Assembly: GCA_044225175.1 (NCBI GenBank)
Contig: JBGAJA010000001.1
Location: 206,114-270,113, forward strand
Length of the DNA stretch: 64,000 bases
Source of the DNA: Candidatus Omnitrophota bacterium
Lineage (GTDB): Bacteria; Omnitrophota; Gorgyraeia; Zapsychrales; Fredricksoniimonadaceae
Reading direction: 5' to 3'
Of this stretch, positions 37,400 through 63,642 are shown piece by piece (the stretch's first letter is position 1; each line of letters begins with the position of its first letter). Under the pieces are notes generated by a model that did not search any database, was not told the DNA's origin, and saw only the letters and a program-made list of their open reading frames with translations. The position numbers were made by a program, and so were the translations under genes.

Positions 37400-38304
37400 C
37401 CATTGATTCACACAGTCATTTTATGCCACCAGCTGTTGCTCAAAAGACCGCGTTCTTTAAAGAGCATTGGTCAGATGTTGATAAACATCTTAAGTTGATG
37501 GATGATCATCATGTTAATCAATCGCTGCTTTTATATCCAACCAGCGACGCGCATATCAATATGGGGGGATGGAAGAATCTTTGCGATGTTTATAATCGTG
37601 AGCTTTCTCAAATTGTTCATAAATATCCCAATCGTTTTATTGGAGCTGGAATTTTACCTATTGATTCTCCTGATGACATTCTCAAAGAATTAAAACGCAT
37701 TGAAGACTTGGGATTAAAAGTAATTTCATTGGCATCCAGTTATGATGGAATTTATTTGGATGATCCAAAATTCTTTCAGATTTATGAGTTCGCCAAGTCA
37801 AAGAAAATGCCCATCCATGTACATCCTCAAATCATGAACCCTATTGGGTTTGAACGCGTGCAAGACCCATTATTAAGTCCTGTTTTAGAGTATGTATTCG
37901 ATGTTTCTATGTGTATTGGAAAGATGATGATGTCAGGTGTCTTTTTAAAATACCATGACGTTAATTTCATTTTTGCTCATTATGGAGGAGTGCTTCCAAT
38001 TGTAAAGGAGCGCTTCGATGCTACGTACGCAATGCTCAGACGACGAAACTTTGTAAAAGACATTACTAAATTTCCAAGCGAATTTTTTTCGAATTTATAT
38101 TTTGATACCAGTGGTTCAAAATCCAAGGCCTCATTATTGGCTGCATTAGAGTTAACGGACTGCCACCATATATTGTGGGGGTCTGATTTTCCAGCGAATC
38201 AAAATTTCAAAGATTCCCTCGGTGTAATCAGTAATACCGTGCTTTCTGTGCAAGAACGTAACTCATTATTTGGCTATAATTTTGCACGCCTCATGGAAAA
38301 ATAA
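37396..38304 (+). CDS. Amidohydrolase-2 family metal-dependent hydrolase/decarboxylase (ACMSD-like)
   Basis: N-terminal IDSHSHFMPP metal-binding His pair. TIM-barrel amidohydrolase_2 pattern. Confidence 0.65.
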   Translation: MTIDSHSHFMPPAVAQKTAFFKEHWSDVDKHLKLMDDHHVNQSLLLYPTSDAHINMGGWKNLCDVYNRELSQIVHKYPNRFIGAGILPIDSPDDILKELKRIEDLGLKVISLASSYDGIYLDDPKFFQIYEFAKSKKMPIHVHPQIMNPIGFERVQDPLLSPVLEYVFDVSMCIGKMMMSGVFLKYHDVNFIFAHYGGVLPIVKERFDATYAMLRRRNFVKDITKFPSEFFSNLYFDTSGSKSKASLLAALELTDCHHILWGSDFPANQNFKDSLGVISNTVLSVQERNSLFGYNFARLMEK

Positions 38305-38333
38305 GATAAATAAAAAATAGTCAAAAAAAATTG

Positions 38334-38362
38334 TTGACATTAAAAATTTATCTGGTATCTTT
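38334..38362 (+). promoter_or_regulatory. Candidate rRNA operon promoter (TTGACA, 16–17 nt spacer, tatctt) with upstream A-tract UP-like element
   Basis: ttgacattaaaaatttatctggtatctt preceded by aaaaaatagtcaaaaaaaa. A second TTGACA lies at 38386. Confidence 0.4.
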
Positions 38363-38445
38363 ATGAAACCTTTTTTAGACGTTCTTTGACAATCTATTGT
38401 TCGATTCAAATTTAAACAAGCCAAAGATTTTTTTGAAGCCAAGAA

Positions 38446-39989
<1,544 letters not shown>

Positions 39990-40180
39990 TATTCTATTAC
40001 AGGATAGAAACGAAAATTTCATCGTCAACGAAATGTTTAAGCATAATAAGTAAATCAAGATCTTCTCTTTGAAGTTCTTGGCTTTCAAAAATTTTAGAAC
40101 TGCTCGTTGAAACAATGAGCGATCATTGTTTCAACGGGTTTGTTTTCCAAGTGGTCAATCCACTGGCTAAGCCGTATAAC

Positions 40181-40254
40181 GGGCCCGTAGCTCAGATGGT
40201 TAGAGCGCGTCCCTGATAAGGACGAGGTCAGTGGTTCGATCCCCCTCGGGCCCA
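40181..40254 (+). tRNA. tRNA-Ile (anticodon GAU)
   Basis: Cloverleaf GGGCCCGTAGCTCAG...CTGATAA... in the 16S–23S spacer. CCA is not encoded. One U·C mismatch in the T-stem. Confidence 0.85.
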
Positions 40255-40264
40255 TTTATTTCGA

Positions 40265-40341
40265 GGGGCCGTAGCTCAGTTTGGTAGAGCGCCTGCTTTG
40301 CAAGCAGGAAGTCAAGAGTTCGATCCTCTTCGGCTCCACCA
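40265..40341 (+). tRNA. tRNA-Ala (anticodon UGC)
   Basis: GGGGCCGTAGCTCAG...TTTGCAA... with the G3:U70 identity pair. CCA is encoded. Confidence 0.9.
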
Positions 40342-40472
40342 TTTTTTATACGGACTAAATGAATGAACAATAGATGTTAAGCATAGATTTGGATCTCGTT
40401 ACTGACGAGATCGACATGCTCTTTGACAATTATGAAATATAGGGTAATACAATTTCGAGTAGTTTTCGTGTT

Positions 40473-43431
<2,959 letters not shown>

Positions 43432-43488
43432 TATATTAAAATTTGCTTGGGTTGAATTATCCTATATTTCATAATTGTCGTTATCTAT

Positions 43489-43603
43489 TGCGGTAACATT
43501 ACTTGTGGGGCAACACCCGTTCCCTTTCCGAATACGGAAGTTAAGTCCACAGAGGTCGATGGTACTGTAGTCGCAAGGCTATGGGAGAGTAGAACGTTAC
43601 CGC
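43489..43603 (+). rRNA. rrf: 5S ribosomal RNA
   Basis: Terminal helix GCGGTAAC.../...GTTACCGC. Conserved CCGAATACGGAAGTTAAG and GAGAGTAGAACG. Confidence 0.9.
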
Positions 43604-47600: not shown

Positions 47601-47637
47601 AATTCTTTTGGAGCATCGACCAAACTTCTTGGTATTT

Positions 47638-47726
47638 GGAGAGGTGGCAGAGTGGTCGAATGCGGCGGTCTCGAAAACCGTTGTCCGGCGTAAGTCGGAT
47701 CCAGGGTTCAAATCCCTGCCTCTCCG
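47638..47726 (+). tRNA. tRNA-Ser (anticodon CGA)
   Basis: GGAGAGG acceptor stem, long variable arm, anticodon loop CTCGAAA, T-arm CAGGGTTCAAATCCCTG. CCA is not encoded. Confidence 0.85.
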
Positions 47727-47734
47727 TTGAAAGA

Positions 47735-48382
47735 CATATGGGACATATACGAAAAATTGGGGAAGTGTATTATATTGAATTTTTTGCTAGAGGATTGATG
47801 TATTCTCAGGTTGCAGGTCTAACTGAAGAAGGAGCCCGAGAGATGCTTGAAAAGATTGAGAGTAAGATCTCAGCAGGGGAAGCTTTAACGATTGTCAGGC
47901 AAATTAATTTAGATGTTTTTTTTGAGAGGTATCTAGAAGATGTTCATGATCAATTTTCTTCAAAAAGTATTGAGCGTTTTTCTTCGGCCTGGAGAAGTCT
48001 ATTGAATTTTCTAAACAAAAATTATCCGGAAGTTTATCAGTTGTCTCAAATCACGCCATTTTTAATTGAGTCGTATAAAGCCTATTTAATTCCATTAGAA
48101 ACGCCTAAGATTGTCAATTTCACTCTGCTTTTGTTAAGGGAAATTTTTGAGTACGGTATTAAGATTGGGTTTTTAAACGACAATCCATCCTTACATGTCA
48201 CATTGTTGAAAATGACACCATCACCTTTAAGAAAGGGTGCCCGTTCCCAGATAGCAAAAGAATTATTAACTAACGGAGTAATATTAGGAAAAATTTATCA
48301 AGTTCTAAAATTGAAAGATGTGGCTCAGGTCATGTTTTGGTCAAATTTTATTCCCCTGAAAAGGGAAGATGTGTATAATTAA
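47735..48382 (+). pseudogene. Truncated tyrosine-recombinase (phage-type integrase): N-terminal arm-binding and SAM-like core-binding domains only
   Basis: GEVYYIEFFARGLMYSQVAGLTEEGAREMLEKIESKISAGE is the AP2-like integrase N-terminal domain, and ...SQITPFLIESYKAYL the core-binding domain. The ORF ends at the start of the catalytic domain, so no RHRY catalytic residues are present. It sits 8 nt after the tRNA-Ser. Confidence 0.6.
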
Positions 48383-49117: not shown

Positions 49118-50293
49118 ATGAGTGAGAATCAAGACATTGCTTTTAGTGCAGATTTAAGACCTGGTGGGAAAGAGGAATTGTTTGAGAATTTGAATGATTT
49201 TCAAATATGGCTAAATGTCGAACGAGAATTTTGGAACTGGATGGAAGTTCTGAGACAGAAGAATCCTAATGCTCACCACTACATTAATAGCTACTATCAG
49301 AGGTTAAATCAAATACAGGCTCATTTAGAAGCTACTCTTAATAATACAAATATTCCTCATCATCGGGGTCAATTAATTCAGGTTCTACAGAATTATTATC
49401 AAAAAAATCAATTAATTCACTCCTCACAACCCCGAGCAAAGTTTCTCAAAGAAATATTTGAAAAAGATCCAGCCCACGCTGTTTATACTTTGAAATTTTT
49501 TATTGATCGTAGATTTAATCAAGATACACCAGGAGAAATTGAAGGTTCTTTCTCTGCACTATTGTTTGAACATAATGTTAAGGATAGTAATAAAGGAGAA
49601 ACAAAAGCCCTGGAAGAACTTCGTGATTTGTGGCAAATACATCTAAATAATTCTAAGACAGATTTAACAAATATAACAAACGATTATGCGAACACTCTAA
49701 TAAAGCTTCAAGATCAAAAGAATGAAGAGAAGAAAAAATTTGAAGAATTATTAGGTAAAGCAGAAAAAGAACATGAGCAACGTATTGAAAAAGTGAAACA
49801 ACGCTTTAAAGAAATTGAAGACCTCTATGAGAAAAAATTAGCGCTTCATGCTTCAATTAAATATTGGGGAGAGAAAGCGAAAAGTCATTTTAGATGGTCG
49901 ATAGGGTTTACTATAGCTACTCTCGGGGGGTTTTATATTGCAGGGAATTGGTTATATAACATTATGAGATCAGTGATAGGAAATGCAACAATCAAAGACC
50001 TAGAAGTATGGAAAATAGGGTTGCTGTTAATTGCAGCGACAATAGGTGTTTGGATAACACGGGTTTTAATAAGATTGTTGTTAAGTAATGTTCATTTATG
50101 GAATGATGCCAATGAGCGAAGGACAATGATTCAAACATACTTGGCCTTACATAATGAAGGCAAAATGCCTGACCAATCACGAGAATTGATTCTTCAGGCT
50201 TTGTTTCGTCCTACAAGCACGGGTATAGTAAAGGATGATGCAGCTCCTCCTTTTATGGCTGAATGGTTAAAGAGAACAACAGGGGCCGACTAA
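49118..50293 (+). CDS. Hypothetical protein: N-terminal helical/coiled-coil domain, two transmembrane helices, short C-terminal tail
   Basis: 391 aa. Transmembrane helices near residues 255–275 and 290–315. Convergent with the TIR gene. Confidence 0.5.
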   Translation: MSENQDIAFSADLRPGGKEELFENLNDFQIWLNVEREFWNWMEVLRQKNPNAHHYINSYYQRLNQIQAHLEATLNNTNIPHHRGQLIQVLQNYYQKNQLIHSSQPRAKFLKEIFEKDPAHAVYTLKFFIDRRFNQDTPGEIEGSFSALLFEHNVKDSNKGETKALEELRDLWQIHLNNSKTDLTNITNDYANTLIKLQDQKNEEKKKFEELLGKAEKEHEQRIEKVKQRFKEIEDLYEKKLALHASIKYWGEKAKSHFRWSIGFTIATLGGFYIAGNWLYNIMRSVIGNATIKDLEVWKIGLLLIAATIGVWITRVLIRLLLSNVHLWNDANERRTMIQTYLALHNEGKMPDQSRELILQALFRPTSTGIVKDDAAPPFMAEWLKRTTGAD

Positions 50294-50342: not shown

Positions 50343-51695
50343 TTAAAAATGCTGCAATGAACTAAAAGGAGTGCTTCCTTCTCGAGGGGCATTTCCGTTT
50401 ATATAAACTTTCCACAAAACCACGTATTGAGCCCTATTCTGCCATTTATCAAAATTTAAAGAGTAAATGAGGTTGGATATTCCGTTTTCTCCAAATATTC
50501 GTATTTTCTTGCCTGGTAAAAGGAATTTATTAAATTCTTTTTTACCGCTATCTGGTAGAGCGGAATAGTCAAATATAAGATTTAAATAGCCAGGGTTATC
50601 CCGTGATTCACTCGACGTTAAATGAGGGTATTCCCATTTTTTCTTTTCCATATATTCACTAGGAAATTGAAGTTCAATAACAATATTTTTAAATTCTTCT
50701 TTTGTCTTATTTTCGATTTCAAGAAGGAAAGAATATTCGTGTAACTCTGAGGTTTGTTTCAAGGTTTTATAGGTTACTTCTACGTTGGCAGATGATGCGA
50801 TTGGAGAATATCCTTCTTTTAATTTGAGGAGTTCTGTTAATTCGTCTGGTTGCATAGTGTAGGTATTATTTGGAATTCCAAATTGTTCACATATTTTCTT
50901 ACAACTACTTAAAAGATCGGTTGAATCGAATAGTGTTATCCCTTGTGTAACTAAATTTAAAGGTGATCCAAATTCAGTTGGTGATATATTGGTATACATA
51001 GGATAGATTTTAAAACCTCGACCCCAAACGGCAGCGGATTCCCACCATACCCAAGAAGACTCCTGAGCCAATCGAGAGCAAATAGGAATTATAGCCTCTG
51101 CATTTTTTAAATTGGTTTCTAACATAATTTTTAGAGGGTCATCGCCAGGTTGTATACTACGTCTTGCGATAAATATCTCTGCCTTATCTTGAGTAAATTT
51201 TCTAAGTATTTTTTTTATGAAATCAGCTAAAGCGAGTTCTTCACTGGCATAACTGATAAAGATTATAGGGAGTTGTTGAATGGGGCACCTCTCTTTTATA
51301 TATCTAATTTTTTCTTCTGCAATTTCTTTTGTTTGTGAGGTTACACGTATTAGGCCCTCTTTCTTAAAGGGTGTATAAATGAAGGTGCATCTTGGGCTAT
51401 TATTCGTTGTTCCACTTATGCAAATATCATAAGTTAATTCTTGTTTGTATGCTTGAATAAGTTCAGCCAGGCTACTTACGGTGTGTTTAATGCCATCTGC
51501 GCTGTGCCAATAAGCAGTGATCCCACCAATAACATGTGGGTAACCAGGGAAGCCTTGAAACTCTTTACCCCAAGTTTGATCAAAAATTTCAAATAGTTGA
51601 TCTGAGGTTAGAATTTCGGGGGAAAATCCAATATAAGATAAGGTTACGCTGCTTTTCATTTTTGATAATATACTGCGCAAGACTTCAAAGGTCAA
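50343..51695 (-). CDS. TIR-domain protein with unknown N- and C-terminal domains (candidate defence or NADase effector)
   Basis: The central PIIFISYASEELALADF...AIIPICSRLAQESSWVWWESAAVW matches the TIR βA (FISY) and SxW...E motifs. The tracked start is TTG; an alternative ATG lies at 51659. Confidence 0.6.
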   Translation of the reverse strand: MTFEVLRSILSKMKSSVTLSYIGFSPEILTSDQLFEIFDQTWGKEFQGFPGYPHVIGGITAYWHSADGIKHTVSSLAELIQAYKQELTYDICISGTTNNSPRCTFIYTPFKKEGLIRVTSQTKEIAEEKIRYIKERCPIQQLPIIFISYASEELALADFIKKILRKFTQDKAEIFIARRSIQPGDDPLKIMLETNLKNAEAIIPICSRLAQESSWVWWESAAVWGRGFKIYPMYTNISPTEFGSPLNLVTQGITLFDSTDLLSSCKKICEQFGIPNNTYTMQPDELTELLKLKEGYSPIASSANVEVTYKTLKQTSELHEYSFLLEIENKTKEEFKNIVIELQFPSEYMEKKKWEYPHLTSSESRDNPGYLNLIFDYSALPDSGKKEFNKFLLPGKKIRIFGENGISNLIYSLNFDKWQNRAQYVVLWKVYINGNAPREGSTPFSSLQHF

Positions 51696-51795
51696 TGTAC
51701 CATTAGTAAACGAAGCGAACTTTATTTTTTACTACAAACAAACTACAAAAAGAACTACATCCGTGTAGTTGTTTTGTAGTAAATGTCTTTCCTAA

Positions 51796-51916
51796 CTCTC
51801 CCATTTGCAAGGGGTTTTTGGGGAAAAGCACCCAAAACTGTTCCCGACCCCACTCCCTCAACCATAGGTTAAGCGGAGGGACTGGGGTCGGGAACTACCA
51901 ATTGCAAATGGGAGAG
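51796..51916. repeat. Nested inverted-repeat structured element (perfect 15-bp outer inverted repeat plus 20-bp inner hairpin)
   Basis: Outer ctctcccatttgcaa / ttgcaaatgggagag. Inner gttcccgaccccactccctc–loop–gagggactggggtcgggaac. An additional ttttggg/cccaaaa hairpin lies between. Confidence 0.6.
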
Positions 51917-51987
51917 AGTAGAAGGGTGAGAAGATGTTGTATACTTGAGAAGGTGGTTAAGGAAGAATTTAAAAGGGAGGAATTATT

Positions 51988-52509: not shown

Positions 52510-52766
52510 TTTTAAATCTTTACCAACCGTTTTAATCAAATCCGCAGGTGGTTTGTCTCTGGTGCAGACAGGTTAGGCACATTCATTAGTTCAAGAGTTC
52601 GTATTCGTACGCTCCCGCATCCTTTCGATTGTTTTTTCGATTCTGTCATACGTATCAAGGACTACGCCCCACATAAAGCCTGTGAGGCTTGCAAGTGCTC
52701 CGCTCCGCTTCGCATCCTTGACACGTATGCCTTTAGATAATTAAAAAAATCGAAAGGAAACTCACT

Positions 52767-54235: not shown

Positions 54236-55630
54236 ATGCGAAATAAAGTTTTGATTGCCATCTGGTTATTAGCGCCAGGATTGGTATGGGCAGGAGACAA
54301 GGAGTCGGTATCTTCAGGGAATATGAAGAATTTATCTGAAGTGCAGCACATCGTTAAAGATAGAAGTGCCTACTCTATTAAAGAACAACCTTTAAGCGTG
54401 AAGGGGCCCCTAGATGAAGAGCAGGCCATTAGTTTATCTTTAAACAATAATTTAGTGCTTAAAGCATTATTTGAGAGATACGCAGTAGATAGGGCTGATA
54501 TCATAGGAGAAAGTTTATTAAAAAATCCTAAATTTTCTTATTCATCTAGAAAATCCAATGAGCCAGACACCAAAAGGGATACGGAATGGCAAATTAAAGT
54601 TGATGCTTTGGATTTATTATTGTGGCCTTTAAAGAAACAAGCACAACATCGTCAGATTAAATCCGCTGAATTTATGGTGGCTTCCAAGGTTTTGGATTTT
54701 ATCAAAGAGGTAAAAGTAAATTTTTATCATCTACAAGAAGCGCAGGCAGTAATGGATTCTTATGAAGATGATATGCAAGCCCAGCAGACCATCTTAGATT
54801 TAGCCAAAGGAATGTATGGAGCAGGAAACAGCAATATTCTTCAATGGCAAAAAGCACAGGTCGTATTTCATGAATCAAAATTAGGCTACTTAGATGCGAA
54901 ACGTGATTTAGCTATAGCTAGAGAAAATTTAAACTTGCTCTTAGGTTTACCTAAGGGGGAAGATGATTGGAAAATAAATAGCCAATTTAAAGATATTGCT
55001 TTTAGTGAACCTGAATTAACAAAACTTAATCAGATGGCACAAGAGAACCGTCTGGAAATTATTATTGCTAAAGCCCAGATTGGTATTTTAAGCAATAAGC
55101 TGACCATGGCTCGGGCTGGACTTTTGCCGTCATTCGAAGTCGGTTATGATCAAGAACGTGAAGCTAGTGGCAATAAACTCAAAGGCATGGTGTTGGAAAC
55201 GGACGTACCAATTTTTAATTTTAATCAAGCAGGAATGTTACGGTATGAATCACTTTTAAGCGAATCAAAGATTAACGTACCAGCAGTAGAAGCCTTGGTA
55301 ACTAAAGAAGTTAATGTGGCTTATCAGGAGTTAATTACAGCAAGGGCTAAAGTTGAAAATCTTCAAGAAGTCTTACCGCTCTATCAGCAAATGACTAGAG
55401 AGACGCTGTATCATTACAATTTTATGTTAAAAGATGTTTTTTCTGTGTTAGAAGCCAAAAGTGTACAGTTAAAAGCAAAGTCAGAATTTGCTAAAGCTAT
55501 GAGTGAATATTGGCAGGCACGGACTGAATTAGAACATGCGGTGGGGCATACTTTGTCATATACACCCTTAGTTCAAAAAACAGTTGAAGAACAAAAGACT
55601 AACGAAGCTGAACATCATCATGGAGGCTAA
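54236..55630 (+). CDS. Outer-membrane efflux protein (TolC/CusC family) with His-rich C-terminus
   Basis: Signal peptide. Two-repeat OEP-like helical/β pattern. Ends ...EAEHHHGG. Confidence 0.65.
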   Translation: MRNKVLIAIWLLAPGLVWAGDKESVSSGNMKNLSEVQHIVKDRSAYSIKEQPLSVKGPLDEEQAISLSLNNNLVLKALFERYAVDRADIIGESLLKNPKFSYSSRKSNEPDTKRDTEWQIKVDALDLLLWPLKKQAQHRQIKSAEFMVASKVLDFIKEVKVNFYHLQEAQAVMDSYEDDMQAQQTILDLAKGMYGAGNSNILQWQKAQVVFHESKLGYLDAKRDLAIARENLNLLLGLPKGEDDWKINSQFKDIAFSEPELTKLNQMAQENRLEIIIAKAQIGILSNKLTMARAGLLPSFEVGYDQEREASGNKLKGMVLETDVPIFNFNQAGMLRYESLLSESKINVPAVEALVTKEVNVAYQELITARAKVENLQEVLPLYQQMTRETLYHYNFMLKDVFSVLEAKSVQLKAKSEFAKAMSEYWQARTELEHAVGHTLSYTPLVQKTVEEQKTNEAEHHHGG

Positions 55631-55631
55631 T

Positions 55632-56834
55632 ATGTTTAAGTGTTTAATAATGTTTTTAATGCTTATAGTTTCATCAAGTAGTACATCATGGGCGCAGCCA
55701 TTGTCCTATACTCCTGTCATCACGCCTAATGGCAGTACAATGCCGTGGACATTGGCCAAGGATGGAGTTAAAGAGTTTCATATCACCGTTGGAGCATGTC
55801 AACATGAAATAGCACCTGGTATGACTATCAATGCCTGGTGTTATAACGGTCAAACGCCAGGGCCAACGATTGAAGTCGTTGAAGGAGATAGAGTAAGAAT
55901 TTTTGTTAAGAATGAACTACAAGAAGGTACGGCTGTTCATTGGCATGGAGTATTCTTGCCCAACGGTATGGATGGTGTTTCAGGTTTGACACAAAAATCC
56001 ATAGAACCAGGACAGACGTTCAAATATGAATTTACCTTAAAACAGCACGGAACGTTTATGTATCATTCCCACGGCGATGAAATGACACAAATGGGCTTAG
56101 GTACTATGGGCTTCTTTATTGTTCATGCTAAAGATGAACCCAAGGTTGATCGTGATTTTGCAATTTTCTTAAATGAATGGTTTGTTGAGCCAGGCACAAA
56201 AACACCCAATCCGAATATTATGACGGACTTTAATATTTTTACTTTCAATAGCCGAGCATTTCCTGGAACAGCTCCTTTGGTCGCTAAAACTGGAGATAGG
56301 ATAAGAATTCGTATAGGTAATGTTGGTCAAGAATCTCACCCTATTCATTTGCATGGGTATGCTTTTAAAGTAGTCGCAACTGATGGGGGAGATATTCCAC
56401 AATCAGCCCAATATCCAGAAACAACGGTTGTAACCTTTCCTGGTCAGACACGCACAGTTGAATTTGTCGCCAATGCTCCTGGTGATTGGGCACTGCATTG
56501 TCATCGTAGACATCATCCGATGAATGCCATGGGGCATGATGCAGCCAATGTACTAGGGGTTAATCAAGATAGCGTTAAAGATACTATCCGTAAACTTGTT
56601 CCTGGGTATATGCCGATGGGAGAAAACGGTATGGATGAGATGAACTACATGCAAATGAAAGGCCCAGCAAATACTCTGCCTATGATGGGTGGTCAAGGTC
56701 AATTTGGCCCCACAGGCATGGGAGGCATGTTCACAGTCTTTAAAGTTAGGGATAATCTTAAAGATTATGATAACCCTGGAGAATATCCTCATCCAGCGGG
56801 AACAGTTGCAAGTGTAATCGAAGATAAAAAATAA
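55632..56834 (+). CDS. Multicopper oxidase with Met-rich C-terminal region
   Basis: Copper-site motifs HWHG, HPIHLHG, HCHRRHHPMNAMG. C-terminal MPMGENGMDEMNYMQMKG...MMGG. Signal peptide. Start at the ATG after ggagg. Confidence 0.8.
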   Translation: MFKCLIMFLMLIVSSSSTSWAQPLSYTPVITPNGSTMPWTLAKDGVKEFHITVGACQHEIAPGMTINAWCYNGQTPGPTIEVVEGDRVRIFVKNELQEGTAVHWHGVFLPNGMDGVSGLTQKSIEPGQTFKYEFTLKQHGTFMYHSHGDEMTQMGLGTMGFFIVHAKDEPKVDRDFAIFLNEWFVEPGTKTPNPNIMTDFNIFTFNSRAFPGTAPLVAKTGDRIRIRIGNVGQESHPIHLHGYAFKVVATDGGDIPQSAQYPETTVVTFPGQTRTVEFVANAPGDWALHCHRRHHPMNAMGHDAANVLGVNQDSVKDTIRKLVPGYMPMGENGMDEMNYMQMKGPANTLPMMGGQGQFGPTGMGGMFTVFKVRDNLKDYDNPGEYPHPAGTVASVIEDKK

Positions 56835-56859
56835 CAATCATCAAAGAAAGGAAATACGT

Positions 56860-57204
56860 ATGAAAAATAGAACCATAACAATATTAGTTGCAGGTAGTAT
56901 TTTGATGTTAGGAGGCTATTCTTTTGCTCAAGAAGCAGATCATGGCCAGGTTATCAGTGATAAGCAGGCTATGGAAGATATTGCTGCAAAGAAGGCTGTA
57001 GAAGTTGGCAATACAATTTGTCCTGTAAGTAAAGAAGAGATTCCTGCACCGGGTAAAGAAGGCCCAATGGGCGGGGCTATTAAATATGAATACAATGGTA
57101 AGATTTATAATCTATGCTGCAAGATGTGTGTAAAGGATTTTAAAAAAGATCCTGAGAAATATAGCAAAATTGCAGAAGATCAAGCTAAAACTGTCCAGAA
57201 ATAA
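56860..57204 (+). CDS. Periplasmic YHS/TRASH-domain metal-binding protein
   Basis: Signal peptide. ICPVSKEEI...YEYNGKIYNLCCKMCVKDFKKDPEKY matches the YHS pattern. Confidence 0.6.
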   Translation: MKNRTITILVAGSILMLGGYSFAQEADHGQVISDKQAMEDIAAKKAVEVGNTICPVSKEEIPAPGKEGPMGGAIKYEYNGKIYNLCCKMCVKDFKKDPEKYSKIAEDQAKTVQK

Positions 57205-57264
57205 TTGTTAGTTGATTAGCGGGTGGGAAAATTTGATTCCCACTCGCTATCTAAAGGAGAATTT

Positions 57265-57690
57265 ATGTTGGAACAACTGTTTCCCATACATCCCAAGCTT
57301 GTGCATTTTCCTATTGCTTTATTTATGACTGCATTTGCTTTGGATAGTTTAAGCTGGATTTTTCGTAAGGAACATTTACATAACACAGCAATAGTTATTT
57401 ATGTATTTGCGGCGTTATTCACTCCTCTAGTTGTCTGGACAGGGTTGTTTGAGCAACAGAGACTTCATTTGAATCATCCTGTCCTTAATCAACATAAATT
57501 ATACGCTTTTGGGACGATGTGGATTTCTTTAGCTTCATTACCTGTTTTATGGTTTTTGAAAAAGTTTTTTTCTAGAAATTTTAGAATAATATTTACATTG
57601 CTGCTTTTAAGTTTGGCAATACTGGTTACAGTTACAGGGCATTTTGGTGGACGTATGGTTTATGAATATGGAGCAGGAGTACAGAATTAA
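57265..57690 (+). CDS. Membrane protein (DUF2231-like, four transmembrane helices)
   Basis: Hydrophobic helices. Start trimmed to MLEQLF. Confidence 0.45.
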   Translation: MLEQLFPIHPKLVHFPIALFMTAFALDSLSWIFRKEHLHNTAIVIYVFAALFTPLVVWTGLFEQQRLHLNHPVLNQHKLYAFGTMWISLASLPVLWFLKKFFSRNFRIIFTLLLLSLAILVTVTGHFGGRMVYEYGAGVQN

Positions 57691-57710
57691 GATAGACTGA
57701 AATTATTCTC

Positions 57711-57742
57711 TTGACTCTCCACCATACTGGAAGGTGTATAGT
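57711..57742 (+). promoter_or_regulatory. MerR-type promoter: TTGACT, 20 nt spacer, TATAGT, with a GGAAGGT half-site in the spacer
   Basis: ttgactctccaccatactggaaggtgtatagt. The over-long spacer is typical of MerR/CueR-controlled promoters. It sits upstream of the MerR-family gene. Confidence 0.5.
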
Positions 57743-57768
57743 TTTATTAGATAACAAGGGAGATAAAA

Positions 57769-58167
57769 ATGTTTATCGGTGAACTCAGTAAAGAGACAGG
57801 TATTCCAGTTAAGACAATACGGTATTACGAAGAGTTTGGGCTTTTACATAAGCCGAAAAGATCAGTGTCTCAATACCGTATTTATAATCATAAAGACCTT
57901 GAAAAACTTTTATTTATCAAGAAGTCTAAAGATTTGGGGCTAACCTTAGCTGAAATAAAAAAAATCATCAAACGTAGCAGTAGTGGAGTTGAGGCAACGT
58001 GTTGTTTAGTCCATGAAGTTTTTGAAGAAAAAATAGCTGATTGTGAACAAAGAATCAAAGAATTAAAAGAAACTAAGAAGCGCTTAAGCGAACGGCTTCA
58101 CCATTGGATAACAACCAGTGAAGCTAAGAAATTAAAATTTACAATTTGTCCTCAAATTGATAAGTAA
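57769..58167 (+). CDS. MerR-family metal-responsive transcriptional regulator (CueR-like)
   Basis: N-terminal MFIGELSKETGIPVKTIRYYEEFGLL HTH, dimerisation coiled coil, C-terminal Cys-containing tail. Confidence 0.75.
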   Translation: MFIGELSKETGIPVKTIRYYEEFGLLHKPKRSVSQYRIYNHKDLEKLLFIKKSKDLGLTLAEIKKIIKRSSSGVEATCCLVHEVFEEKIADCEQRIKELKETKKRLSERLHHWITTSEAKKLKFTICPQIDK

Positions 58168-58313
58168 GATGGTTCAAATGAGGCTAACAGTATTTAAAAT
58201 TAAGTAGTTTTACTTAGATTTGCGAGTATGTTTCCGTACAGTATTTTTTTGTCTGTAGTGTTATTTTAGTTAAATAAAAATTTAAGGGTAATCTTTTATA
58301 AGGAGGTGGTTTT

Positions 58314-58964
58314 ATGCATGGAGATGAATTAGGGAGTTATGCCTATGGTATGTGGCCTGTGGTAATTTTTAACATACTTATTTTTTCTTTTTTTATCATT
58401 AGTTTTGTTAAGCCTCAAGGCAAAGTCGAATGGGCTTCTATGGGTGCTTTCATAGGATTTATCGTCGCTTTATTTACAGAAATGTACGGCTTTCCGTTGA
58501 CGATTTATCTCTTGTCAACCTGGATGGGGAAATCATATCCAGTTTTAAATCCATTTTCTCATAATCATGGTCATTTATGGCTGGTTTTGTTGGGGTTGGC
58601 TGATTCTGCATGGGCGATGACTCTTCTACATATAGTGAGCAATGGCATGATTCTTATCGGTTTTTATATAATTCAGAAGGGCTGGGTGCTTATCCATGCC
58701 GCAGCCGGCAAACGTTTGGTAACAGAAGGTATTTATGCTCATATACGACATCCTCAATATAGTGGGATGTTTTTGATAACCTTAGGTTTTCTTTTGCAAT
58801 GGCCTTCGATATTAAGTCTGGTGATGTGGCCTATTTTGATGTTCGCCTATTATCGTCTGGCTATGAAGGAAGAAAAAGACGTTCAGAAAATATTCGGGAA
58901 ACAATATGAGGAATACAGGAAGACAGTTCCTGCATTTATTCCTAAATGGGGAGGTACAAAATGA
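58314..58964 (+). CDS. Isoprenylcysteine carboxyl methyltransferase (ICMT/PEMT)-family membrane methyltransferase
   Basis: LVTEGIYAHIRHPQYSGMFL... is the family signature. Confidence 0.65.
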   Translation: MHGDELGSYAYGMWPVVIFNILIFSFFIISFVKPQGKVEWASMGAFIGFIVALFTEMYGFPLTIYLLSTWMGKSYPVLNPFSHNHGHLWLVLLGLADSAWAMTLLHIVSNGMILIGFYIIQKGWVLIHAAAGKRLVTEGIYAHIRHPQYSGMFLITLGFLLQWPSILSLVMWPILMFAYYRLAMKEEKDVQKIFGKQYEEYRKTVPAFIPKWGGTK

Positions 58965-59113
58965 CAAATACAATGTTTATTCTTATTGTGTTTATAGTTC
59001 TAATTGCTTTCATGATGATGAGAAAAGGCGGTGGAGGTTGTTGCGGTGGTCATCATGATGAAAAATCTGAAACAGATAAAAAAGAGGATGATAGGAAGCA
59101 CGGGTGTCATTAA
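58961..59113 (+). CDS. Small membrane peptide (50 aa) with GGGGCCGGHH and C-terminal HGCH motifs
   Basis: Not in the ORF track (under 60 aa). ATG overlaps the upstream stop (ATGA). One transmembrane helix then the Cys/His tail. Confidence 0.5.
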   Translation: MTNTMFILIVFIVLIAFMMMRKGGGGCCGGHHDEKSETDKKEDDRKHGCH

Positions 59114-59157
59114 CGGGAATTATCTAAAGATTGTAAAACTTGGAAAGGAGGATTGAA

Positions 59158-59409
59158 ATGAAAAATCATAATCATGGTTTATGGATGATGCTCTGTTGCA
59201 TTTTGCCTTTATTGGCAATTTTTCTGTTGCCGGGCTTTGGAGCTAGGGGTAATTCTTCAATTCTATTCTTTGTCATTATGATGTTTGCTTGTCATTTTAT
59301 GATGATGGGTGGTCATCAGCATGGTGAAGAGAATACTGACAATAAGACAGAGAATGAAGAAGATAAAAATAAAGAACACAAGGAAGGGGGTCATCATGGG
59401 TGTCATTAA
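59158..59409 (+). CDS. Small membrane protein with CC and C-terminal GGHHGCH motif, paralogous tail to the 58961 peptide
   Basis: RBS aaaggagg. MKNHNHGLWMMLCCILPLL... ending ...GGHHGCH. Confidence 0.55.
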   Translation: MKNHNHGLWMMLCCILPLLAIFLLPGFGARGNSSILFFVIMMFACHFMMMGGHQHGEENTDNKTENEEDKNKEHKEGGHHGCH

Positions 59410-59686
59410 TATTAAAAGATTCGGACTAGCGGTTGGTTTAACTCTGGTTTTTTTACGTCTGGGGTGCATCATTGTGTTTTTAATGACAACTAGGGAACAG
59501 GCAGTAGTTTTTTTTAATACTCTTTTGCATGGGATCGATGTTAGTTCGATATTAAAGACTGAAATGTCTGTCTTAGAGATGGTATTTGGACTGATTCAGA
59601 TATTTATTTTAGGGTGGTTAACAGGAGCAACAATAGCTAGTATTTATAACTTTAGTTTTAATAAAAAGAAAGGGTGTTGCATATGA
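59396..59686 (+). CDS. Small membrane protein ending in KKKGCCI
   Basis: ATG at 59396 preceded by ggaaggggg. Three hydrophobic segments. I rejected the ORF tracker's N-terminal extension at 59309, which overlaps the upstream gene. Confidence 0.4.
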   Translation: MGVINIKRFGLAVGLTLVFLRLGCIIVFLMTTREQAVVFFNTLLHGIDVSSILKTEMSVLEMVFGLIQIFILGWLTGATIASIYNFSFNKKKGCCI

Positions 59687-59820
59687 AAAACAATATTATA
59701 GGTATCATAGTATTTGCTATTTTAATAGTCTCAGGATTAGCCTTTGCTCATACGATGGGAATGGGTGGCGGTTGTTGCGGTGGTGCTCATCATACCTGTA
59801 GTCTGCATCACGCTCAGTAA
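59683..59820 (+). CDS. Small membrane peptide (45 aa) with MGMGGGCCGGAHH motif
   Basis: Not in the ORF track. One transmembrane helix plus a GGGCCGG.HH tail like the 58961 peptide. Confidence 0.5.
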   Translation: MKNNIIGIIVFAILIVSGLAFAHTMGMGGGCCGGAHHTCSLHHAQ

Positions 59821-59886
59821 TAAGAAAATGATAATGTATAATAGACAACAAATGAAGCTGTTGTTAACTAGAGAAAGGTAAAGTTT

Positions 59887-60309
59887 ATGAAAAACAGTAT
59901 CGCAGTATTCACAGCAATTGTAGTTTTAACCGTTTCAGGATTGGCCTTAGCCCAAATGAATGATAAGGGCAAAGAAATGATGGGGGACAAAACAGGAATG
60001 ATGGAGGGTAAAGGCGGCATGATGGGAATGATGGGTGGTAAAGGGATGATGGGTATGATGGGAATGTGTCAGTCCATGATGAACAAACCGTCTGTGGTTG
60101 CGGTTGGTGATGGAGTGGTTGTTTTATCAGGTAAAAAACTCTATAAATATGATGCCAATCTCAATTTAATTAAAGAAGCTGATGTTAAGGTGGAAGAGAT
60201 GGGAATGATGGGTGGGGATATGATGGGCAAAGGTAAGATGGATGCTGATGATAAAGAATCAGCAGAAGAGGCGGCTAAACATGCATCACATCATCCAGAA
60301 CAAAAATAG
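59887..60309 (+). CDS. Periplasmic methionine-rich copper-binding protein
   Basis: Signal peptide, then repeated [10 protein letters not shown] motifs and a His-rich C-terminus. Confidence 0.7.
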
Positions 60310-60326
60310 TCAAAGAGGGCTTATTT

Positions 60327-62600
60327 ATGGTTAAGGACCCCGTATGTGGAATGATGGTTGATCCATCAAAAGCGATCCATGCCTCTGTTGGGGGCATGGA
60401 TCACTATTTCTGTAGTACACACTGTAAAGAGAAGTTTCTAAGCAAGATTCAAGTGCCTGTGCCTGAAGCTAAATTTAATGGGAAAGCCATTTACACTTGT
60501 CCCATGCACCCTGAAATTAAGCAAGATCATCCAGGCGATTGTCCAAAATGCGGTATGCATTTGGAGCCACTCAACCCCACAGGTGGAGGAAATGAAGATC
60601 AAAAAGAGATTCATTCATTATCTCAAAAGTTTTGGATTGGCCTTACACTAACAATACCTTTGGTATTGTTAGTGTTGGGGGATATGATTCCAGCTGTCAA
60701 TCTTCAAGCATTCCTGCCTCAACATTTATTACCATTTTTACAATTAGCTTTAGCTACTCCTGTAGTTTTATGGACAGGGTGGATGTTTTTTGTTAAAGGC
60801 TGGCAATCTGTAATTAATAAAAGTCTTAATATGTTTACACTGATTGCTATTGGTGTTGGTGCAGCTTATGGGTACAGTACCATCGCAACTTTGTTTCCTC
60901 AAATTTTTCCTGAATCGCTTAAAAAAATGGGCAAGGTTGATCTCTATTTTGAAGCAGCAGCCGTCATCACAGTTTTAATTATTTTAGGACAATTATTAGA
61001 AGCTAAGGCTCGTAGTCAAACAGGTCAAGCTATCAAAGCACTTTTGGGGTTAGCTGCTAAGAATGCTCATCGCATTCAAAATGGAGTTGAGCAAGAAGTA
61101 GCTATTGATTCTGTTCAAAAAGGAGATTTGCTTAGAGTCCGTCCTGGAGAAAAAGTTCCTTTAGATGGTGTTATTACTGAAGGTCATAGTAGTATTGATG
61201 AATCGATGATTTCAGGTGAGCCAATTCCAGTTGAGAAGAATATTGGTGATCGAGTGATTGGTGCAACTGTTAACCAAACTGGCAGTTTTGTCATGAAGAC
61301 AGAAAGGGTGGGGGCAGAAACATTGCTGTCTCAAATTGTTCACATGGTTGCTGATGCTCAACGCAGTCGTGCTCCTATTCAAAAACTTGCTGACACTATA
61401 TCTGGTTATTTTGTTCCTGTTGTTATTTTGATTTCCGCTTTAACTTTTATTATTTGGTTGAATTGGGGGGTAGAGCCAAAGTTAGCATATGCGATTGTTA
61501 ATGCTATCGCAGTATTGATTATTGCTTGCCCGTGTGCTCTTGGCTTAGCTACACCTATGTCTATTATGGTTGGTGTTGGTCGTGGCGCACAAGCAGGAAT
61601 TTTAATTAAGAATGCTGAGGCTATTGAAAAATCTGAGAGAATTACCCATGTTCTAACCGATAAAACAGGAACACTGACCGAAGGTAAACCAAGGGTTACA
61701 ACTTGTGTCCCGAGTCGGGGCATAGATGAACAGCAACTTATAGGCATGGCTGCATCTATAGAACAAAGTAGCGAACATCCGTTAGCTCGTGCTGTGATTG
61801 ATTATGCAAAAGAAAGAAAAGTCAATTTGCAAGCTGTGCAGGATTTTGAATCGATTACAGGTGGTGGTATTAAGGGCAAGATCAATGGACAAGTGATTAT
61901 TTTGGGAAAGCAAAAATTTATTGAAGATCAAAAGATTACAATACCTGATGATTTAAAAAATAAAGCTGAACAATTACAAGAGAAGGCGCAGACTGTGGTT
62001 TGGTTAGCTGCTGATCAAAAAGTGATGGGAATGCTTGGAATTTCTGATCCTATTAAAAAATCAACTCCAGAGGCAATCGAAGCTCTTCATAAAATGGGGA
62101 TTAAGGTTGTGATGTTAACAGGAGATAATCAAAAGACAGCGGAAGTTATTGCTAAGGAACTTAAAATTGATGATGTTCGAGGGCAGTTAGAGCCAAAGAG
62201 TAAACAAGAGATAGTTAAAGAATTCAAATCCAAAGGTGCTGTAGTCATGATGGCAGGAGATGGTATTAATGATGCTCCAGCTTTGGCGCAAGCAGAGGTT
62301 GGTGTTGCGATGGGGACAGGAACAGATGTTGCTATTGAAAGTGCAGGAGTAACCTTGGTTAAAGGCGATCTTAACGGTATTGTTAAAACTTTACGATTAA
62401 GTAGAGCTGTTATGAAAAATATTCGTCAGAACTTATTTTTTGCATTTATTTATAATGTGTTGGGGATTCCTGTAGCCGCAGGTATTTTGTATCCTATTTT
62501 TGGCATTCTTTTAAGTCCCATTATCGCTGGCGCTGCGATGAGTTTCGGTTCAGTATCTGTTATTGGTAATGCTTTAAGGTTAAAGCGGTTGAGTTTTTGA
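60327..62600 (+). CDS. copA: Copper-translocating P1B-type ATPase with N-terminal TRASH/YHS and CPxH-type metal-binding domains
   Basis: DPVCGMMVD...YFCSTHC (TRASH). [26 protein letters not shown]. Transmembrane CPC motif. [21 protein letters not shown]. Confidence 0.9.
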
Positions 62601-62871
62601 TCTCAAGATAGATATTTGTTAAAAATATAGTATTTGAAAAAATATCAAATACTTCTTGACATTTAATAAAATATTTGTTGACAAATATTTTTGATCTGGT
62701 AATATTGTTTTCAGCAATTAGGAATAGTTGATTGCTACCGATTTCCCCGATCGGTTTAAGTAGTAGAAATTCCCCGAAGTTTGTTTTTATAGTTTAATTC
62801 AATGCTCAATTTCTTTTACCCCAAATCAAAGAAGTTGAACTCACAAGGTGCATTTTTTGTAAAAAGGACGC

Positions 62872-63642
62872 TTGTTTATGCGTGCGATTCCGCAAAAAAT
62901 TCAAATCTTGAAGTTCATAGGGGAACAGGGAATTGTTACTCTCTCTGATGTATCCCGCCATTTATTTAGTGAAGATAAGCTTTCTTATGTACGGGTTACT
63001 ATGTATGAGCTAGGTATAGCTCACAAAAAATACCCAGATGTAGCTAATGGTGTTTGGTTTATTGATAATCCAAAACTTTATGAGCTATTGAGTCTTTATT
63101 TTCCTGATTTTCCGCAATTAGAAGTCAAACCCTTTACCCTACATAAAATCCCACATAGTTTAGAAATAAACCGTATCCGCAGTACATTTACTCAATCCCA
63201 TCTTATTACAATTGATGAATGGTGGTCAGAAAGGTTGATCTGGGCATTGCCTGTTTCCCATCGTGAAGATTTTTGTAGCGATAAAGTCCCTGATGCTATT
63301 TTTTGGCGTAGACGTAAGGATGGTAGCCGACAAAAATATTTTCTTGAATATGAACGCACTTTAAAGAGTAAAGAGCGTTACGAAGAGATTTTTCGCTCTT
63401 ATGCCAAGTGTAAAGATGTCAAAGACCGCAATGTCATCTACATTTGCCAGACTCTGCGTATTAAAGAAGAGCTTCAAGACATAGAAGAACGCTTAGTCAA
63501 AGCAGGTCGATTAGCTGATGTTGCTCTCTATTTTCAATTCATTACCCTCGAAGGCTTTTATAAAACACATTCAAACCACAATTTAAAGGAGGAAGTAAAC
63601 CATGAACAAACTCAAAAAGTATACGCAAACGTATCTGTTTAA
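62872..63642 (+). CDS. Hypothetical winged-helix-like protein (possible mobile-element replication, relaxation or regulatory protein)
   Basis: N-terminal ILKFIGEQGIVTLSDVSRHLF is wHTH-like. Preceded by an inverted-repeat-rich intergenic region. Confidence 0.35.
   Translation: MFMRAIPQKIQILKFIGEQGIVTLSDVSRHLFSEDKLSYVRVTMYELGIAHKKYPDVANGVWFIDNPKLYELLSLYFPDFPQLEVKPFTLHKIPHSLEINRIRSTFTQSHLITIDEWWSERLIWALPVSHREDFCSDKVPDAIFWRRRKDGSRQKYFLEYERTLKSKERYEEIFRSYAKCKDVKDRNVIYICQTLRIKEELQDIEERLVKAGRLADVALYFQFITLEGFYKTHSNHNLKEEVNHEQTQKVYANVSV

Follow-up and report, generated by a model that had tools for sequence, protein, structure and literature searches.

Repressor-controlled transfer promoters are known from conjugative plasmids, for example the trb promoter of RP4, which is controlled by KorB and TrbA, and the trwA promoter of R388. 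In F-like plasmids the traJ leader is under antisense control by FinP, and single-strand signals are also known in conjugative DNA. The site TTGAT-N4-ATCAA, the FNR box, belongs to the FNR/CRP family. Relaxases of the MOBC class, such as TraX of the Enterococcus faecalis pAD1 oriT2/TraX system and MobC of CloDF13, combine a winged helix with a PD-(D/E)xK core, and TraX binds five direct repeats located 70-120 bp from nic (PMC12857230). Origins that overlap promoters, among them the IncA/C oriT, which overlaps the mobI promoter, and elements with two origins have also been described (PMC5587640). In a pAD1-like plasmid of E. faecalis (L073), repeats with an 11-bp period (1880-1923) and a nested inverted repeat (1945-2084) sit between the coupling-protein gene and a traX-like gene.

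The window, i.e. the whole stretch of 64,000 nucleotides that was analysed, differs from pAD1 and CloDF13 in its host, an uncultured Omnitrophota-like bacterium with a Gram-negative-type type IV secretion system (T4SS). Close to its end, a spacer of 28% G+C (Table 1) lies between a heavy-metal P-type ATPase gene (copA, ending at 62600) and the start of a conjugation operon. The spacer is best explained, with a probability of roughly 0.7, as the transcriptional and post-transcriptional control region of this operon, which would begin with a MOBC-like relaxase gene, continue with trbC/virB2 and virB3/4 and extend to virD4 in an integrative conjugative element (ICE). According to this explanation, a near-consensus sigma-70 promoter lies within an array of TTGA and TCAA half-sites that are ~11 bp apart; a DNA-binding protein, probably a dimer or oligomer, would occupy the half-sites and block RNA polymerase, and the transfer genes would stay silent until induction. 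Transcripts would begin near 62712 with a leader of ~166 nt predicted to fold into three or four hairpins, two with C-rich (UCCCC) loops, together with a further C-rich repeat, and this leader would probably exert its effect as RNA, be it on translation, stability or termination. No published description of the element family was found in the literature. A control region, a probable relaxase and a probable oriT are thereby located for conjugative elements of an uncultured phylum in which hardly any conjugation has been described.

Table 1. Features of the candidate origin of transfer and of the putative control region of the conjugation operon, in window coordinates.
Feature	Start	End	Strand	Remarks
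Repeat array, probable relaxase-binding part of the oriT candidate	51731	51780	+	ACTACA at 51731, 51742 and 51754; TGTAGT at 51764 and 51775; period 11-12 bp
Compound inverted repeat, probable oriT core	51784	51928	+	matches covariance model R1
ardA antirestriction gene	52767	53285	+	same element as the spacer
Spacer	62601	62877	+	from the copA end (62600) to the relaxase-like gene; putative promoter-operator region and ~166-nt 5' leader
IR1	62629	62653		AGTATTTGA-aaaaata-TCAAATACT, perfect 9-7-9
Upstream TTGACA	62655	62660	+	supplies the -22 half-site (TTGA, 62656) of the array
IR2	62668	62691		AAAATATTTGT-tg-ACAAATATTTT, perfect 11-2-11, centred on the -35 hexamer
Predicted sigma-70-type promoter	62678	62705	+	-35 TTGACA 62678-62683; 16-bp spacer; -10 TAATAT 62700-62705
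Predicted leader hairpin 0	62713	62736	+	AGCAATTAG / TTGATTGCT, two G·U pairs
Predicted leader hairpin 1	62737	62755	+	ACCGATT-TCCCC-GATCGGT; C-rich loop conserved, stem covaries
Second TTCCCCGA copy	62770	62777	+	inside a weak hairpin, 62767-62782
Predicted leader hairpin 3	62806	62838	+	TCAATTTCTTT, 11-nt loop with CCCC, AAAGAAGTTGA
Shine-Dalgarno sequence and start codon	62864	62880	+	AAGGA 62864-62868; ATG 62878
254-aa relaxase-like protein	62878	63642	+	N-terminal winged helix; C-terminal PD..ExERTxK..RY nuclease motif
TrbC/VirB2 pilin gene	63602	63898	+	followed by VirB3/4, which runs off the window

About 70 related loci were collected and their upstream regions read. A near clade of 37 loci has an upstream layout like that of the window, and a far clade comprises more distant relatives with another layout. 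The window ends 1.1 kb past the start of the operon. The nearest relative whose locus could be retrieved (L001/L002, 75% identity) has the relaxase-like ORF as the first gene of a long operon, which also comprises genes for TrbC, VirB4, TrbL, VirB8/9/10-like proteins and VirD4, an excisionase-like HTH gene, a MerR-like gene and an integrase gene. Upstream of it are ardA and two giant ORFs, of 1145 and 1794 aa in L001; in the window, heavy-metal cargo takes the place of the giant ORFs. The gene content points to an integrative conjugative element as the setting. The first-pass annotation had read the spacer as a candidate operator array or oriT/nic region of an ICE and had let this depend on a relaxase or T4SS in the element. 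Both were found: a MOBC-like relaxase gene lies directly downstream of the spacer and, in L001, a T4SS with a coupling protein follows it.

The gene after the spacer had been labelled a wHTH gene, and its product does carry a winged helix; comparisons with NF041423 and by hhalign indicate that the gene itself is a MOBC-like relaxase gene and not merely a wHTH gene. Judged from its sequence, the 254-aa protein is a distant homologue of the MOBC-type relaxases (pAD1 TraX / CloDF13 MobC) and a candidate relaxase. It has 90 homologues, the named ones all from Candidatus Omnitrophica/Omnitrophota MAGs. The NCBIfam model NF041423 (MobC_subf, "MobC family replication-relaxation protein") matches all 36 aligned family members (best E 6e-18), and Pfam Replic_Relax matches 15 of the 36. 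A Pfam search with the window protein alone gave no match, and the family assignment became apparent only through profile comparisons and scans over the whole alignment. The window protein reaches E 1.5e-9 and 37.5 bits with NF041423, far below the curated cut-off of 200, and 13.3 bits with Replic_Relax against a cut-off of 25.3; these sub-cut-off scores suggest a distant relative rather than a member of the curated subfamily. Aligned by hhalign with Acinetobacter MobC and a pAD1-like TraX homologue of E. faecalis, the family gave 97.3% probability (E 1.8e-11, 145 columns), with the H…PD…ExERTxK…RY motif in register. D139, E157, E159 and K163 are invariant in the family, and P138 is present in at least 90% of sequences. 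The AlphaFold model (pLDDT 88) has an ArsR/MarR-like winged helix at the N-terminus, which dominates PDB fold searches; matches to restriction enzymes and nucleases are weak. The published description of MOBC relaxases (PMC12857230) matches the winged helix and the motif, and a winged helix followed by a PD..ExERTxK..RY core is what the protein has in common with pAD1 TraX and CloDF13 MobC. The related elements yielded no further relaxase domain.

All of the repeats that the first-pass annotation had listed in the spacer are present, at or within 1-2 bases of where it had placed them. The two perfect palindromes are placed upstream of (IR1) and on (IR2) the -35 box and have the half-site TATTTG/CAAATA in common. 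The repeat described around TTGACA is real, its parsing was slightly off, and it is better given as the 11-2-11 palindrome IR2, the longest inverted repeat of the spacer. The promoter hexamers match at 10 of 12 positions and are accompanied by an extended -10 TG at 62697-62698 (TGgTAATAT); the predicted transcription start falls at ~62712, and the centre of IR1 at about -71 relative to it. A near-consensus promoter of the form TTGACA-16/17-TAnnnT, mostly preceded by TG, is present in 37 of 37 near-clade loci, down to a protein identity of ~43%.

This promoter lies in an array of half-sites of alternating orientation and 11-bp period. Counted from the start of the -35 hexamer, TTGA occurs at -44, -22, 0, +18 and +39/40, and TCAA at -33, -12 and +50; each position is occupied (within 1-2 bp) 7-35 times in 36 loci, four times at +18, against ~0.28 expected. 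Pairs of half-sites often form 15-bp palindromes, TTGAT-N5-ATCAA (TTGA-N7-TCAA), at -44, -23, +18 and +39. The window has TTGA at 62634, 62656 and 62678 and TCAA at 62645. IR1 holds the first TTGA and the TCAA, which are the -44/-33 half-sites, and from their positions IR1 and IR2 are read as the window's copies of array sites, at -44/-33 and on the -35 box. The array sequence is conserved and does not covary, a pattern typical of operator sites that proteins bind on double-stranded DNA. With palindromes at the -35 of a conserved promoter and half-sites phased by 11 bp around it, the repressor-operator reading of the first-pass annotation is supported. Two observations count against the control-region explanation here: IR2 survives, imperfectly, only in a handful of relatives (L002, L044), and the window itself has a degenerate +39 palindrome.

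The TTGAT and ATCAA half-sites are identical to those of the FNR box; the spacing in the array is N5 (15 bp) and not N4, i.e. there is one extra base. Moreover, and again unlike the FNR box, multiple phased copies extend over both promoter boxes, -35 and -10, and over the beginning of the transcribed region, an arrangement that suggests repression rather than class I/II activation. The locus resembles the RP4 trb, R388 trwA and IncA/C mobI promoters in that a strong transfer promoter is overlapped by palindromic or repeated sites next to a relaxosome gene, although the operator sequence and the alternating 11-bp-phased array are not theirs. As such the promoter-operator region is otherwise ordinary, and resembles repressor-controlled transfer promoters in kind, not in sequence.

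The protein that binds the array could be the relaxase itself, whose winged helix would then autoregulate the operon without a separate repressor. This sub-variant of the control-region explanation would fit a relaxase-like gene that is the first of its operon and encodes an ArsR/MarR-like winged helix, and the MOBC relaxase TraX binds repeat arrays of 11-bp period (PMC12857230; compare L073), the same period as that of the TTGA/TCAA array. Indeed, an 11-bp-phased array beside a MOBC relaxase gene also looks like a binding site of such a relaxase, which tells against the control-region explanation as a whole. Nevertheless, we consider autoregulation unlikely. The array is palindromic and not direct, and its half-sites are invariant between elements, whereas the repeats of the oriT-like module described below, which presumably match each relaxase, vary. 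Because of this constancy against that variability, a separate regulator is somewhat likelier than the winged helix of the relaxase. Clustering of ORFs within the available flanks revealed no near-clade-specific regulator.

The second reading of the first-pass annotation, that the spacer is an oriT/nic region, is unsupported, and a separate pAD1-type module, ~11 kb upstream of the spacer, is, by analogy alone, quite probably the better oriT candidate (51731-51928). Loci of the far clade have five short repeats with an 11-bp period, typically three direct and two inverted and of element-specific sequence, followed directly by a conserved ~130-nt compound inverted repeat and then the relaxase gene. 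This inverted repeat has compensatory changes at 20 of 50 pairs and no bias of G·T over A·C. A covariance model of it (R1) matches 51784-51928 in the window with 73.9 bits (E ~1e-16), where outer arms (51796-51815 / 51897-51916) enclose two inner hairpins (51816-51837 and 51840-51895); in seven near-clade loci it finds a match 4-5 kb before the relaxase gene, and it has none in 62601-62877. The repeats beside it differ between elements (ACTACA, GTACA, CTTCA, GCACAA). In the window the module is followed by an unassigned ORF and then ardA, and it corresponds to no Rfam family. Its layout is that of the pAD1-like origin in L073, with about five short repeats of 11-bp period beside a compound inverted repeat of ~130-140 nt. 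In contrast to pAD1 oriT2, the spacer has just short palindromes, a promoter and RNA-like hairpins, and the module is found at 51731-51928 instead. The pAD1-type MOBC origin layout, phased repeats with a large compound inverted repeat, would thus reach far beyond Firmicutes plasmids.

It could still be argued that the spacer is an oriT or a second oriT, in which the relaxase binds the phased or the TTCCCC repeats and nicks near an inverted repeat or hairpin loop. The spacer lies directly upstream of the sole relaxase candidate, ends at the start codon of that MOBC-like gene, and combines inverted repeats with short repeats. Furthermore, IR1 and IR2 are ~50-150 bp from the TTCCCC copies, which can be compared with the 70-120 bp between the TraX repeats and nic in pAD1 (PMC12857230), and promoter-overlapping and dual origins exist (PMC5587640). 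We nevertheless regard this as improbable. The same element has the full pAD1 layout, five repeats of 11-bp period and a ~130-nt compound inverted repeat, at 51731-51928, and far-clade loci have that module immediately ahead of their relaxase gene; the spacer contains neither a match to R1 nor a large (~130-140 nt) compound inverted repeat. Its hairpin stems show a G·T bias on one strand (see below), which the far-clade inverted repeat does not. The constancy of the TTGA half-sites, set against the variation of the oriT-module repeats, also argues against the same specificity-determining protein acting at both. A cluster of palindromes beside a relaxase gene alone is therefore no proof of an oriT. 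As a separate observation, a hairpin resembling a terminator, AAGCCATCCCAGA…GGGGTGGCTTTTT, separates the oriT-like inverted repeat from the relaxase gene in several far-clade loci (L019, L021-L023, L025, L027, L059, L060 and L062), in the region 100-250 nt before that gene; it is possibly an attenuator.

In the control-region explanation, the palindromes that the first-pass annotation had placed downstream of the promoter are most simply the stems of an mRNA leader, as the pattern of base changes suggests. Its repeat AGCAAT-N12-ATTGCT is found at 62713-62718 and 62731-62736, the extent of hairpin 0, which in turn occupies the place of the TTGAT-N5-ATCAA palindrome (+39/+40) of other loci. The palindrome CCGATCGG at 62747-62754 is present too, and is not a feature of its own: homologous loci have AATCGG or AGTCGG there, which makes it a by-product of hairpin 1. 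Both copies of the direct repeat TTCCCCGA were found, the first at 62743-62750. In related leaders, a hairpin at the +39 site 3' of the -10 is followed by a hairpin whose loop of 5-8 nt contains CCCC (CCC in two closely related loci). More C-rich repeats come next, after which the closest relatives have a third hairpin whose loop is again C-rich; altogether, related loci have 2-5 C-rich motifs of the TTCCCCGA type. The leaders contain 23 C-loop hairpins in 4 kb, compared with 64 in 320 kb of flanking sequence counted on both strands, a ~57-fold enrichment. They occur nowhere else in the elements consistently, the module being present once per element. Two loci, L005 and L063, keep the third leader hairpin and a conserved ACTTGCAAGATGCATTTTTTG box without the promoter-operator part, and their relaxase gene may be co-transcribed with upstream genes.

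The stems of these hairpins vary in a manner consistent with RNA. Across 25 loci, hairpin 1 takes 22 distinct stem sequences, with 147 Watson-Crick pairs, 16 G·T pairs on the sense strand and no A·C pairs. In an (imperfect) MAFFT alignment, seven of seven pairs show compensatory change, and none of 500 shuffles reaches the covariation score. In hairpin 3, A and G replace each other in the 3' arm of relatives where this faces a T, so that the pairing is U-A or U·G. Folding of the window leader gives -34.8 kcal/mol for the sense strand (z ~ -2.1) and z +0.3 for the antisense strand; across 30 loci the mean z is -1.84 for sense and -0.24 for antisense. The non-Watson-Crick pairs of hairpin 1 are all sense-strand G·T (16 against 0 A·C), which points to RNA, although G·T pairs are tolerated in single-stranded DNA hairpins too. 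The leader resembles that of traJ in placing structured 5' stem-loops before a conjugation regulator or operon; it differs from the traJ/FinP system in that no antisense promoter was found in a promoter scan of the spacer and the antisense strand folds no better than shuffles, and also in that the window leader has no Rfam match.

We tentatively propose that the hairpins with UCCCC-type loops and the extra C-rich repeats are an undescribed cis-regulatory element of the conjugation operons of Omnitrophota-type ICEs, read by a dedicated partner. This partner could be a G-rich small RNA, an RNA-binding protein, Rho or an antiterminator; a factor that acts on the single strand during transfer is a less likely partner. 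If this is true, expression of the transfer genes would be gated after transcription start. The C-loop leader hairpins are a candidate new regulatory RNA motif and the sole part of the locus that is possibly new in kind. Other readings of the leader were considered and rejected. A CsrA-type or antisense-RNA reading would have to use the minus strand, which would have A·C mismatches and folds no better than shuffles; the lack of an antisense promoter in the scan also speaks against it. Pairing of the C-loops as anti-Shine-Dalgarno sequences is unconvincing, with at most ~4 complementary bases by eye. A Rho site was discounted, the leaders being only mildly richer in C than in G.

The C-loop hairpins have a slim chance of being single-stranded DNA signals on the transferred strand, such as a priming site or a promoter that acts on single strands in the recipient. 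Their strand-specific folding and their occurrence once per element would suit such signals. However, with a strong conserved promoter directly before them and a ribosome-binding site after them, they are placed as an mRNA leader would be; they also resemble no known single-strand origin and match no Rfam family.

Chance formation of the palindromes in AT-rich intergenic DNA, to which the 28% G+C of the region and the poor conservation of IR2 itself might point, is extremely improbable, as it is contradicted by shuffle tests and by positional conservation across dozens of loci. Compared with 500 dinucleotide-preserving shuffles of 62601-62877, the spacer has four inverted repeats (nested counts) with a stem of at least 9 and a loop of at most 14 nt against 0.11 expected, a count reached by none of the shuffles; a stem of 11 was reached in two of the 500. 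In a DNA search against plasmids only the end of copA was matched, with no match in the spacer, and Rfam 15 gave chance-level matches only, with no described RNA family.

Several further observations concern the surroundings of the spacer and the distribution of the element. Between ardA and the transfer operon, 54236-62600 is a heavy-metal resistance block. Besides the CopA-type ATPase it encodes a MerR regulator and an efflux protein of the outer membrane, and it also contains small ORFs rich in Met and His. A conserved inverted repeat, CATACGTATCAAGGA-N53-TCCTTGACACGTATG, lies ~40 nt upstream of ardA (52647-52729 in the window, 112-198 in L002), for which an operator, an RNA structure or a single-strand promoter are possible roles. 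Further upstream, a tRNA-Ser gene (47637-47727) is directly followed by an integrase-like fragment (to 48382) with homologues at the ends of related elements, and 47637-48382 is probably either the edge of the island or left over from an earlier integration event. Two genes situated between this tRNA gene and the oriT-like module are possibly defence cargo; one, on the + strand, encodes a DUF6161 protein (49118-50293) and the other, on the - strand, a TIR-domain protein of 450 aa (50343-51695). The region ~38000-43600, with higher G+C (0.46-0.47) and genes for tRNA-Ile and tRNA-Ala (40181-40341), presumably represents an rRNA operon immediately before the island. Lastly, the same element family is found on contigs binned as Phenylobacterium (L024, NZ_JAUSCJ010000031.1) and on several 'Planctomycetales' MAG contigs, which could reflect either mis-binning or a broad host range.
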